Shown: one piece after another, positions 17,411 to 22,930 of the stretch
Numbering within the stretch: position 1 is the first letter of the stretch
How the letters are laid out: every line of letters begins with the position of its first letter
Assembly: GCF_030013595.1 (NCBI RefSeq)
Contig: NZ_CP122768.1
Source of the DNA: Escherichia coli
GTDB lineage: Bacteria > Pseudomonadota > Gammaproteobacteria > Enterobacterales > Enterobacteriaceae
Direction: 5' to 3' (one strand)
DNA length: 64,000 nucleotides
Program-made: the position numbers and the translations under genes
Notes under the pieces: model-generated
The model's database searches: none
Told to the model about the DNA's origin: nothing
What the model saw: only the letters and a program-made list of their open reading frames with translations

Positions 17411-17718
17411 GTTTTTTTCTTCCTGTACCTGTCTGTGTTGTTCAGGCTCTACGGCCTTTAGTCAGTCTATGATACGACGAATCTGTATCGGGACTCATCG
17501 ATATTAGGTAACAATACGCGGGATGAATACTAAGATTTAGATCTAATGTTAATTTTATGTTTAAAGTGAGTGTCATATCACGGTGATAACGCGAAACAGC
17601 TCACAAAAATACACGCTTACGGGGTCTTTGCAACACAAAATAGCGCCGTTTGGCAAACTGAAGGGTTTATTGCTGAATGTCTGCTCCCCTCTGGTTCGAG
17701 GGGAACAGAATGCGCTGC

Positions 17719-18339
17719 TTAGAGGATTTCCAGCAGTTCGACTTCAAACACCAGGGTGCTGAACGGAGGGATGGACGCGCCTGCGCCACGCTCGCCATAT
17801 GCCAGTTCCTGCGGGATAGTCAGTTCCCATTTAGAACCTACCGGCATCAGAGTCAGTGCTTCAATCCAGCCAGGGATCACGCCGTTAACCGGGAATTCAG
17901 CTGGCTCGCCGCGAGCAACGGAGCTGTCAAACACGGTGCCGTCGATCAGTTTTCCGGTGTAATGAACACGAACGCGGTCGGTACGTGCCGGAATTGCGCC
18001 TTCGCCCTGGTTGATCACGCGGAATTGCAGGCCAGATTCGGTGCTATTTACACCTTCTTTTTTGGCGTTTTCTTCCAGGTATTTCACACCTTCAGCAGCC
18101 ATCGCCTGGAAACGCTGACGACGAACGGCATCGGCGCGTTCGTGGATTTCACGCAGCGCGCGGTGCACCACATCAACCGGAACAACCGGATGTTTGCCTT
18201 CCAGCGCATCAGCAATGCCTGCAACCAGTGCTTCTGGCAGCAGCCCTTCCAGGCCAGATTCACTCAGTTGTTGCCCTACCTGCAAACCAATGCCGTAGCT
18301 TGCTTGCGCTTCGATGGTGTCAAAAGTTGGGGTGGTCAT
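17719..18339 (-). CDS. fklB: FKBP-type peptidyl-prolyl cis-trans isomerase FklB (206 aa from MTTPTFDT)
   Basis: ORF 17719-18498 contains [22 protein letters not shown]...[25 protein letters not shown] domain. Confidence 0.92.
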
Positions 18340-18556
18340 CGTATTTCCTTTCTTAGGGTATAAAGTAGCGGGCAGCATATCAGCCACACTTCTTTGGGTA
18401 AAACTTTGTCGCGGGAATGATGACAAATCCCGGGGAAAAAGAAACAATAGCAATATCCCGTATGAATATAATAAAGGCGGGTTTACCACGGACATCATAG
18501 CGTTAGCTTATTCATAGGCTATGATTGAGGAACAAGACGCGGAGCAGGAGGAAACC

Positions 18557-19195
18557 ATGCCCGGGCGCTTTGAACTAAAACCAACCCTGGAGAAAGTCTG
18601 GCACGCGCCGGACAATTTTCGCTTCATGGACCCGCTGCCGCCGATGCATCGTCGGGGGATCATTATTGCCGCCATTGTATTGGTAGTCGGATTTCTGCTT
18701 CCATCTGATGATACGCCCAACGCGCCGGTGGTGACGCGTGAAGCGCAGTTAGATATTCAGTCGCAATCACAACCACCGACAGAAGAACAGCTGCGGGCGC
18801 AATTAGTCACGCCACAAAATGATCCTGATCAGGTGGCTCCGGTCGCTCCAGAACCAATACAGGAAGGCCAGCCAGAAGAGCAGCCGCAACCCCCCCAAAC
18901 GCAACCATTCCAGCCAGATAGCGGAATTGATAATCAATGGCGCTCTTACCGTGTCGAACCCGGTAAAACGATGGCACAGCTGTTCCGCGACCACGGGCTG
19001 CCCGCTACCGATGTCTATGCAATGGCGCAGGTAGAAGGCGCGGGTAAGCCGCTGAGTAATTTGCAAAACGGGCAGATGGTGAAAATCCGCCAGAACGCCA
19101 GCGGCGTGGTGACGGGCTTAACCATTGATACGGGGAATAATCAACAGGTCCTGTTTACCCGCCAGCCGGATGGCAGTTTTATTCGTGCGCGGTAG
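18557..19195 (+). CDS. ytfB: OapA/LysM-domain cell-division-associated protein YtfB (212 aa from MPGRFELKP; alternative start at 18521)
   Basis: ORF 18521-19195; single TM segment, Pro/Gln-rich linker, C-terminal OapA-like domain. Confidence 0.85.
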
Positions 19196-19329
19196 ATGAA
19201 GGGTCAACCAGAAGCCAGCTAAGGAGCGTCTCTTTGATGACCTTACGTCTGGCTTCCAGTGCCTGGGGGGAAACCATACTGATGTGTTGACATCCTCCAC
19301 GCCCTGAAGGACGTGGATCCCTGCTACGT

Positions 19330-20538
19330 TCAGGCTGTCGCCTGAATCATTTCGGTGGGTTCCTGCTTCAACGAGCGGCCTGACTGCACCATCTCTCCAC
19401 AGGCAAGAACGGCGTGCCCCGCCGCTAAAATGTTACGAGCGCCATTTACATCGGCGTTCGCTGTATATCCACATACCTGGCATCTGAATTTAATTTGTGA
19501 CAGGCGATTTTCTTTCGCTGTATGACCACAGCACGCGCAACGCTGGCTTGTGTACGCTGGCGGAACAGCAAGCACCTGACCGCCACGCCAGAGCTGCTTG
19601 TACTCAAGCTGGCGGCGCATTTCATACCAGCCCTGATCCAGTATCGAACGGTTTAAACCTGATTTTGCCCGGACATTGCGCCGCGGCTGGCTGACCGTAC
19701 CCGCTGCTGACTTTGACATGTTGCTGACCTTCAAATCCTCAATGACTATCATTGCGTGGTTTTTGCTGACGGTCGTTGTGACTTTGTGAAGGTAGTCCCT
19801 GCGGATATTTGCGATACGGGAATGCAGTCGCTGTATTTTGCGTTTCTGCTTCTGCCAGTTATTGCTGAATTTGACCTTGCGGCTTAACTGTCGCTGAAGT
19901 CTCGCCAGCTTCTTCTGTTTTTTCTGAAAACTGTTTACAGGCTCAAAGACTGTGCCATCTGACAGCGTGGCGAGTTTAACCACGCCAGCATCCAGCCCGA
20001 CCATTGATGCTGAAGGATGAACCGGAGTTGATACTTCACTTTCTGTCTGAATACTGATGTACCACTTACCGCAGGACTGGCTGACCGTGACATTTTTCAC
20101 AACACCCGTGACCTGACGGCTATTCCGGTAGCGCATCCAGCCCAGTTTCGGCAGAAAAATACGGCTGTTTTCCTGATAGAGCTTAACGCCCTACGGGTAG
20201 CGGAATGCATCATTCTGTCCCCGCTTTTTGAATCGGGGAAAAGCAGCCCGCTTCTGGAAGAAGTTTTTGTAAGCCCGCTCAAGGTCTTTCAGTGACTGTT
20301 GCAATGGCTGTGACGGGGCATCTTTAAGCCATTGCGTTTCAGTGGCATTTTTCCACTCAACCAGCCAGGAAGCCATTTTCCCGTAAGGGATGTATTTATT
20401 ACCGGCCTCATGATTCTCATTCTGAAGCGCCAGAGCACGATTGAAAACGAAACGACATGCGCCTGCGAAGCGCCTCATTTCACGCTCCTGTTGACCACCG
20501 GGTCTTAACTGGAATTTAAATGCCTGTCGTCGTTTCAC
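19330..20538 (-). pseudogene. tnpB: tnpB (IS605 OrfB / TnpB RNA-guided nuclease family), ~402 codons interrupted by one in-frame TAG at 20191-20193
   Basis: N-terminal ORF (GTG start) VKRRQAFKFQLRPGGQQE...AFRYP, then TAG, then in the same frame GVKLYQENSRIFLPKLGW-MRYRNSRQVTGVV...; C-terminal part has RuvC-like region and CxxC...CxxC zinc finger ([39 protein letters not shown]). Confidence 0.8.
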
Positions 20539-20545
20539 AGGTCAA

Positions 20546-21000
20546 ATGATACTTTGGTCTGTGAAAAAAGAAACCTATATCCGGCGTGGAAGGTATTGTG
20601 TTTTCCTGATGCATGTTCACCTGGTCTTTGTCCCAAATACCGACGCCAGATTTTTGACCATGACGCGACAGAAAAACTACGCACTTACTTTTCAAATGTA
20701 TGTGCTGATTTTGAAGCTGAACTGGTTGAAATGGATGGCGAACCAGATCACGTCCATTTGTTAATTAAATATCCTCCCAAACTGGCGATATCCAGTCTGG
20801 TAAACAGCCTCAAAGGCGTATCGGGTAGGTTACTGCGACGAGATCGACCAGATATTGCAGTCAGGTATTACTACAAAGGCGTTTTGTGGAGTCCTGGCTA
20901 TTTTGCCAGTAGCTGTGGAGGTGCGCCAATATCCGCCATCCGTCAATCCATTGAACAACAGCAAACACCTGGTCAGGTGGAAAACCGCGCCGTATATCCC
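20546..21000 (+). pseudogene. tnpA: tnpA (IS200/IS605 Y1 HuH transposase), frameshifted; 3' limit uncertain
   Basis: Frame 1 MILWSVKKETYIRRGRYCVFLMHVHLVF, then a 1-nt frame change in a T-run (~20620-20630) into CPKYRRQIFDHDATEK...DHVHLLIKYPP (HuH motif)...[16 protein letters not shown]; a Ser occupies the position where family members have the catalytic Tyr. Confidence 0.7.
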
Positions 21001-21357
21001 CGCCCTGAAGGACGGGGTTTTACGGCACACCGGATAAACCAGGCCAAGCGTATGCTGGTTGATCAAATAATATCCCCCAAGCGCAGCAATATTAATATAC
21101 ACCTGCAATGGGTCGATATCTGGCTTAAAAATATTGTGTTTCTTCCCTTCATCCAATAAGGATTCCATTAACTGCAAGTGCGCATGATTAATTTCTAAGA
21201 GACGCTGTGATTTTACATAATGCACACCTTTACTTTGGTTTTCACTATGCACAATTTTTAAAAACCAAGGATTAGCAATATAATATATCCTAGGTAAAAT
21301 CGATGATTTTTTCAATGGCTTTTTGTGGCTGGTTAACCTGCTGATTAACAAACGCAC
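20830..21357 (-). CDS. Hypothetical ORF (175 codons) starting in the low-GC islet and reading into the IS element end; possibly a ytfA-like gene remnant
   Basis: ORF track 175 aa [17 protein letters not shown]...; roughly the first 108 codons lie outside the IS hairpin at ~21017, the rest is antisense to tnpA. No recognisable domain by eye. Confidence 0.3.
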
Positions 21358-21603
21358 CGATACCGACAGCGTAGAATAATTACATACCGCACAACAAGAA
21401 TGTATGGTGTAAGGCGTTGTCAGTCATCTCCCTCCCTGGGTGCATCTTTATATCCGTGATGAGCGATTTTTGATATTAATATCTTTTACTATCCGCTATT
21501 TTCACCACTTCAGAAAACAAACTTATTTTTATTAATATCGATTATTTATTCTGTGCACATTCAGCTGCGATATTTATAAAAAAATTAAACAGGCAAAAAT
21601 ACA

Positions 21604-22398
21604 ATGACATTACCAACCACTATTTATTCATTTCCTGCATATTCACCCCGTTTTTCGTCCACCGACAAACCAGTAAAATTAAAATTTCATCAATACGCAC
21701 GCGCTACATTACTTTCAAATCGAGGAAGAGATCATAATTGCGATGGCAGACATACTGTTGAGATCCACAAACTAGATCTCTCAGGCTGGCAAGCATTCAA
21801 TAAGTTAGCGACGAGGTGTAATGCTTACGATGGAATAACAATGAATGGTGATAATTCTTTTGGATGGAACCATGAAGCTACATTAGATAATATTCACGCC
21901 CAGAAATACAATAAAGCTTACGCGGGTGCGAGGTTAACCGCAGAACTGAAATATTTATTGCAAGATGTTGAATCCTTCGAACCCAACAGTAAATACACAA
22001 TACACGAGGTTGTTTTGGGACCTGGTTATAGTACTCCAGACTATACCGGCCAAACGATAGGATACGTTGTAACCCTTCCTGCCCAAATGCCTAATTGCTG
22101 GTCATCTGAACTACCAACAATCGATCTTTATATCGACCAACTTCGCACTGTTACAGGCGTTTCTAATGCCCTCGGATTCATCATTGCTGCATTGCTAAAC
22201 GCGTATTCTGATTTACCCCATGATTTGAAAATTGGTCTGCGTTCCTTATCAAGTTCAGCAGCAATCTACTCGGGTTTGGGTTTCGAGCGAGTGCCGCAGG
22301 GCCGAGACATAAGGTGCGATCGTATGCATCTAACGCCAGCAAACCATCCTGAATTATGGACACAAGAGAATGGTGAATGGATCTACTTGCGAAACTAA
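21604..22398 (+). CDS. yjfZ: Uncharacterized protein YjfZ, 264 aa, low-GC gene
   Basis: ORF track 264 aa MTLPTTIYSFPAYSPRFSSTDKPVKLKFHQYARATLLSNRG...; AT-rich codon usage and AT-rich upstream region. Confidence 0.8.
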   Translation: MTLPTTIYSFPAYSPRFSSTDKPVKLKFHQYARATLLSNRGRDHNCDGRHTVEIHKLDLSGWQAFNKLATRCNAYDGITMNGDNSFGWNHEATLDNIHAQKYNKAYAGARLTAELKYLLQDVESFEPNSKYTIHEVVLGPGYSTPDYTGQTIGYVVTLPAQMPNCWSSELPTIDLYIDQLRTVTGVSNALGFIIAALLNAYSDLPHDLKIGLRSLSSSAAIYSGLGFERVPQGRDIRCDRMHLTPANHPELWTQENGEWIYLRN

Positions 22399-22420
22399 TA
22401 CCTAACGAAAAATAGAAAGC

Positions 22421-22448
22421 AAAACGCCGACCAGTGGTCGGCGTTTTT
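22421..22448. terminator. Bidirectional rho-independent terminator between convergent yjfZ and rplI
   Basis: aaaa-cgccgaccagtggtcggcg-ttttt: GC-rich stem flanked by an A-run and a T-run. Confidence 0.75.
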
Positions 22449-22468
22449 ACGTCTCGTTGAATAACGAA

Positions 22469-22930
<462 letters not shown>

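Follow-up and report, generated by a model that had tools for sequence, protein, structure and literature searches.

The 64,000-nucleotide stretch of Escherichia coli DNA analyzed here (hereafter the window) very probably contains a fossil copy of IS609, a member of the IS200/IS605 family with divergent tnpA and tnpB genes, that has become fixed at ytfA and is decaying in the absence of selection. Neither the element nor its condition is new, and routine annotation has recorded both: in HCP5S3_I2 (pig, UK), where the element is 100% identical and the flanks are essentially identical, PGAP describes tnpA as “frameshifted; incomplete” and insQ as having an “internal stop”. The features of the copy and its surroundings are listed in Table 1.

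Table 1. Features of the IS609 copy and of its insertion site, in window coordinates. Hairpin z-scores compare the DNA fold with shuffled controls.
Feature	Position	Strand	Basis and remarks
Whole IS609 copy, 1,747 bp	19287–21033	minus	Empty-site comparison; identity to other copies
tnpA pseudogene, Y1 HUH transposase	20546–20973	plus	Pfam Y1_Tnp; NCBIfam NF033573; PGAP
1-bp deletion (A lost), frame shifts after codon 29	between 20632 and 20633	plus	Alignment with O157 and K-12 copies
Ser codon TCC replacing catalytic Tyr codon TAC (Y135S; base 20948 A to C)	20947–20949	plus	O157:H7 and K-12 comparison
CAG at the ancestral TAG stop position	20974–20976	plus	TAG in O157; outgroups inspected end at TPG/TPS/TPD
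tnpB/insQ pseudogene, 403 codons including stop	19330–20538	minus	Pfam HTH_OrfB_IS605, OrfB_IS605, Cas12f1-like TNB; NCBIfam; PGAP
tnpB premature stop, codon 116 CAG to TAG (plus-strand G to A at 20193)	20191–20193	minus	Sequence comparison
LE subterminal imperfect hairpin, top strand CCCCGTCC-TTCA-GGGCGGGG	20999–21018	minus	Fold z = -3.5; 16 nt from the LE cleavage site
RE subterminal imperfect hairpin, top strand CCACGTCC-TTCA-GGGCGTGG, then 10 nt ending TCAA	19297–19316	minus	Fold z = -3.7
Candidate guide-RNA (omega RNA) region, tnpB 3' end and RE	19274–19457	minus	Inferred; sub-threshold Rfam matches
ytfA upstream fragment, TetR-family pseudogene split by the insertion	21034–21357	minus	Pfam TetR_C_29; PGAP annotations

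A megablast search with positions 19200–21100 of the window was run against 5,426 complete genomes of E. coli and gave matches in 5,424, at a median of three places per genome; in all, these genomes have roughly 14,000 IS609 places. The annotations under these matches are IS200/IS605 (IS609) tnpA and “RNA-guided endonuclease InsQ/TnpB”. No further IS609 copy turned up when the whole 64 kb of the window was searched. The copy is located between ytfB and yjfZ, upstream of rplI, inside the TetR-family pseudogene ytfA, of which the remaining fragment lies to the left of the element (19180–19286, minus strand). This site is occupied by the element in about 4,300 of the 5,426 genomes. In strain FDAARGOS_944 the site is empty, and alignment to both junctions sets the boundaries of the element, without a target-site duplication. 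Since ytfA of this empty-site strain is itself annotated as a pseudogene missing its N-terminus, the gene was probably dead before IS609 was inserted. The active (top) strand of the copy is the tnpB-sense strand, i.e., the minus strand, with the LE at 21033 and the RE at 19287. On the tnpB-sense strand, 5'-TTTAT precedes and GTCAA terminates the IS609 copies at four loci (ytfA, ydcO, yajI, and yfeD-gltX).

The copy at ytfA in O157:H7 shares 97.9% nucleotide identity with the window copy over the full 1,747 bp. PGAP names the O157:H7 TnpA an “IS609 family transposase”, and the near-identity of the two copies places that of the window in IS609 as well. A separate insertion at ytfA was considered as the cause of the 2% difference from the O157 copy and was rejected, since divergence in the flanks (2.2% and 3.8%) equals or exceeds that of the element and the two copies have identical junctions. 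The flanks in question, 17700–19286 on the ytfB side and 21034–22600 on the yjfZ side, show these respective divergences from both O157:H7 and FDAARGOS_944, which seems high for E. coli core genes; a close match exists only in two UK pig isolates. The tnpA–ytfA junction region is matched at 99% or more only by HCP5S3_I2 and LCP30S3_I5.

Several features of the IS200/IS605 family are retained. The tnpA product matches Pfam Y1_Tnp (PF01797, E = 6e-35), and the frame-corrected TnpA scores 136.5 bits against NCBIfam NF033573 (IS200/IS605 transposase; cut-off 55). Its HUH motif is intact (DHVHLLI, residues 67–73) and in line with DHIHIL of the TnpA of IS608. The tnpB product, with the premature stop read as Gln, scores 388 bits against NCBIfam guided_TnpB. 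Subterminal imperfect hairpins are present at both ends without terminal inverted repeats, and the insertion lies 3' of a fixed short target (TTTAT at the four loci) with no duplication of it. Other family features are lost. The frame of tnpA is interrupted, the C-terminal helix (QYIxxQ) no longer carries its catalytic Tyr, which is the ancestral state, and the RuvC and zinc-finger domains of TnpB are recognizable but are preceded by the TAG at codon 116. The TnpA of the window would thus be a member of the IS200/IS605 family by descent, yet one predicted to be inactive.

From the start at 20546, which is also the start used by PGAP, the tnpA frame breaks near codon 30, so that one ORF extends over 20546–20764 and another over 20554–21159. 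A previous examination of the letters of this DNA (the sequence-only reading) had noticed this break and ascribed it to a T lost from a TTTT run at 20620–20630. The break is real, but its cause is an A missing between 20632 and 20633. The intact copies read GTCACCA(G/A)ATACC where the window reads GTCCCAAATACC (GTCACC to GTCCC), and the TTT at 20627–20629 is unchanged between them. Loss of a T from TTTT, giving VF-CPKYRRQ, was therefore rejected, as the intact copies and the outgroups put the indel 4 nt downstream and identify the lost base as A. The supposed continuation CPKYRRQ is an out-of-frame reading in which two codons resemble, by chance, the CPKYRR of IS608; the intact protein reads HLVFVT(R/K)YRRQ, the variable residue being R in the O157 copy and K in most of the others. 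As a consequence of the deletion, TnpA is truncated at 72 aa, before the HUH motif.

The polarity of these changes is given by outgroup TnpAs from Salmonella, Photorhabdus, Proteus, Morganella, Klebsiella, and Yersinia (80–87% identical), which read VFV(T/A)KYRR uninterrupted. Because the outgroup proteins show a continuous frame, QYIEQQ, and a stop after TPG/TPS/TPD, the deletion, the Ser codon, and the CAG in place of the stop are derived states. The opposite order, in which the deletion allele would be the ancestor (VPKYRR, with an A lost from AAAA and later compensated), was also tried and rejected: Pro occurs at this place in none of the 120 homologues listed, which read V(T/A)(K/R)YRR. 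The frame change is likewise not a regular feature of intact copies, as the sequence-only reading had allowed for, since the sole intact copy sampled and all outgroups are in one continuous frame.

The second lesion proposed for tnpA, replacement of the nucleophilic Tyr by Ser, is borne out. The codon is TCC in the window and TAC in both O157:H7 and K-12, and a phmmer alignment places the Ser at Y127, within QYIENQQ, of IS608 TnpA (PDB 2a6m/2vjv), the known nucleophile. Residues 17–141 align in this pairwise comparison and the QYIxxQ helix is in register. A motif scan of the 120 homologues listed found Tyr at the catalytic position in 102 of the 104 that match the motif. Some further changes in tnpA were absent from the sequence-only reading, namely the stop loss (CAG at 20974) and the three lineage-specific missense changes D11Y, H17Y, and N75K. 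Owing to the stop loss after ...QQQTPG, the tnpA ORF continues through the LE into ytfA, to 21159. The ancestral TAG is kept in 1,441 of the 5,426 genomes. Most E. coli IS609 copies have CAG instead of TAG, and their tnpA reads through the LE hairpin into locus-specific C-terminal tails; PGAP labels such stop-less copies “missing C-terminus”.

The single lesion claimed for tnpB was also found as an in-frame TAG at codon 116, produced by the G to A change on the plus strand. The OrfB_IS605/RuvC and zinc-finger domains are encoded downstream of this stop. The gene shares its HTH, OrfB_IS605 (RuvC), and TNB zinc-finger domains with the TnpB/omega-RNA nucleases such as ISDra2 TnpB, and its 3' end gives weak matches to tnpB-associated RNA families; unlike in those systems, the reading frame is cut at codon 116, and no nuclease would be possible. 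A search of Rfam for a curated guide-RNA family gave nothing above threshold. Both matches at 19274–19457 are below it (HgcC, 23.9 bits, E = 0.0096; sot0042, 17.1 bits, E = 0.17), and the HgcC and sot0042 families overlap the 3' ends of IS200/IS605 tnpB genes. The tnpB 3' end together with the RE thus likely encodes a guide (omega) RNA.

The LE and RE hairpins of the window copy have the majority sequence of the seven copies compared. The sequence-only reading had set the conserved hairpin ends against the immobility of the element. The hairpins are indeed present and match the consensus, but there is no paradox: at the observed lineage-specific divergence (about 21 changes over the 1,747 bp, or about 1.2%), chance alone would leave only about 0.5 changes in two 20-nt hairpins (40 nt). 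Selection on the hairpins was considered and is not needed at this divergence.

With two disabling lesions in tnpA and one in tnpB, the sequence predicts no autonomous movement, in agreement with the earlier conclusion that the element is immobile. As judged from these lesions, tnpA cannot make a transposase and, even if the frame were restored, would have Ser in place of the nucleophilic Tyr, while tnpB, with its stop at codon 116, cannot make TnpB. The cis-acting parts are intact: the element follows its target TTTAT, ends at the RE in GTCAA, and has kept its two subterminal hairpins. The copy would be unable to excise or insert alone, and could in principle be mobilized only by TnpA supplied from an intact IS609. 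In HCP5S3_I2, which carries exactly the same copy, IS609 is found at a single place and there is no helper copy; in the genome sampled here, a helper IS609 may still lie outside the 64 kb analyzed. For the K-12 IS609 copy, no new insertions were seen in mutation-accumulation lines (PMC5009759).

To follow each lesion through the 5,426 genomes, short queries were centered on it such that any 28-nt megablast seed was forced to span it. The frameshift allele occurs in 240 genomes at 328 places, with up to three per genome, and was found at three loci: yajI/DUF3251 (IAI39, SMS-3-5, AR_0067), yfeD-gltX (RM14723, 2015C-4136CT1), and ytfA (the window, VCSW7). The Ser allele is present in 23 genomes, 17 of them from swine; where checked, it lies at yfeD-gltX (K_EC180) and at ytfA (19KM1831, in frame and with tnpB intact). 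The tnpB stop allele is limited to five genomes, with ytfA (VCSW7) and ydcO (22AR0118) as its loci. All three lesions occur together in only two genomes. Among 11 aligned IS609 copies, tnpA is intact in one (O157), and the other 10 carry mixes of the L96 stop, the 1-bp deletion, Y135S, start-codon loss, and a His-to-Phe change in HUH; tnpB is full-length in eight of the 11. Of the disabling tnpA alleles, three (the L96 stop, the 1-bp deletion, and Y135S) recur at different loci (ytfA, ydcO, yajI, and yfeD-gltX), which suggests gene conversion among IS609 copies, and the counts suggest that tnpB is retained longer than tnpA.

The variable sites among the aligned copies are reticulate rather than tree-like. 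Between the window copy and the ytfA copy of VCSW7 there are no differences over 19287–20313 (1,027 bp) and 20 differences over 20314–21033 (720 bp). The window copy is thus a mosaic with a breakpoint near 20255–20314, inside tnpB. Under the simplest reading, the three lesions are older alleles circulating among IS609 copies that were joined in this copy through gene conversion or homologous recombination. The presence of each lesion at other loci, with all three together in only two genomes, favors exchange by recombination between decaying copies over a function. Recurrent mutation, e.g., C to T making TAG, may contribute to the shared lesions. The earlier description of the lesions, two in tnpA and one in tnpB, as independent calls for a qualification: they do not look like private mutations of one line, as each allele is shared with other IS609 copies, some of them at other loci, and the combination looks recombined.

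Some alternatives to simple decay deserve consideration. The frame change could be a programmed -1 ribosomal frameshift at C_CCA_AAT, a heptamer of the type X_XXY_YYZ, that would yield ...VFVPNYRRQ... and a full-length TnpA and would keep the copies active. The heptamer lies in the zero frame exactly at the junction (20630–20638), where it was created by the 1-bp deletion, and a programmed slip would explain the spread of the frameshift allele over three loci, 240 genomes, and 328 places. Frameshifting of the -1 type is used by elements of the IS1 and IS3 families, which provide a precedent (PMC4066793). However, C_CC.A_AA.U is not among the 18 motifs shortlisted in the same work, a list limited to motifs that are under-represented in genes and that, with no stimulator present, shift frame at more than 0.1% (PMC4066793), and the downstream RNA has no stimulatory structure (fold z = 0.08 relative to shuffled sequence). 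The deletion allele is moreover derived, with a continuous frame in the sole intact copy sampled and in all outgroups, and every sampled copy with the deletion has another disabling lesion, i.e., the L96 stop, start-codon loss, the HUH His-to-Phe change, or Y135S. Both alleles also share the same insertion site, at ytfA as well as at yfeD, and the deletion therefore came after the insertion. A programmed frameshift is thus highly unlikely, although a -1 slip at C_CCA_AAT may yield a trace of full-length Ser-variant TnpA. If low-level TnpA did arise in this way, no programmed frameshift would have been reported before it for a transposase of the IS200/IS605 family, and the spread of the allele would be explained.

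It could also be supposed that the Ser variant is retained as a catalytically dead DNA-binding protein, for instance a dominant-negative regulator of IS609 or a hairpin binder. The TnpA of IS608 acts as a dimer in which the active sites are assembled in trans, and a dead subunit could accordingly poison active ones; the Ser allele is found at two loci, and in 19KM1831 it is in frame beside an intact tnpB. Against this, the frameshift in the window abolishes the protein, the allele is rare (23 of 5,426 genomes), the K_EC180 copy at the other locus sampled (yfeD) has an internal stop too, and no sign of selection was found, so that little credence can be given to such a role. An error of sequencing or assembly in the window, as the source of the frameshift or of the Ser codon, has a practically negligible probability. 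Single-base indels are the commonest assembly error, but the deleted A lies outside any A homopolymer, and 240 complete genomes have the exact 44-nt frameshift allele and 23 the Ser allele, these genomes having been produced by many laboratories on different sequencing platforms. Decay of an IS609 copy is therefore the reading that we retain.

The window copy can be set beside several named systems. The IS609 of O157:H7, with both TnpA (WP_000604943.1) and TnpB (WP_000826431.1) intact, occupies the same site with the same divergent tnpA/tnpB layout and agrees with the window copy in the hairpins of both ends, in the target (TTTAT), and in the terminal GTCAA. The window copy differs from it in the 1-bp tnpA deletion, Y135S, loss of the TAG, the three missense changes, and the stop at tnpB codon 116. 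The IS609 remnant of K-12 at ydcO-ydcL (insQ and a tnpA pseudogene according to PGAP) likewise has a dead tnpA; yet it lies at another locus, its tnpA was killed by the L96 stop, and its tnpB is intact. IS608 of Helicobacter pylori, whose TnpA structures are 2a6m, 2a6o, and 2vjv, is a more remote relative. Over residues 17–141 its TnpA aligns with E = 3e-17, with HUH and QYIxxQ in register. The insertion mechanism of IS608 is established, and both elements have an RE ending in TCAA 10 nt past the hairpin and insert on the 3' side of a short, fixed target that is not duplicated. Distantly related as it is, IS608 has co-directional tnpA and tnpB and the target TTAC instead of TTTAT, and its TnpA keeps the nucleophile Y127 where the window copy has Ser.

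The sequence-only reading thus correctly recognized a frameshift and the loss of a catalytic residue, but misplaced the indel by way of the IS608 motif CPKYRR. The window adds one more decayed copy of IS609, an element found in nearly every E. coli genome with, among the copies sampled, tnpA mostly broken and tnpB usually intact. A mildly useful by-product is the observation that disabling alleles are common to copies at different loci, as would be expected if IS copies recombine with, or convert, one another.
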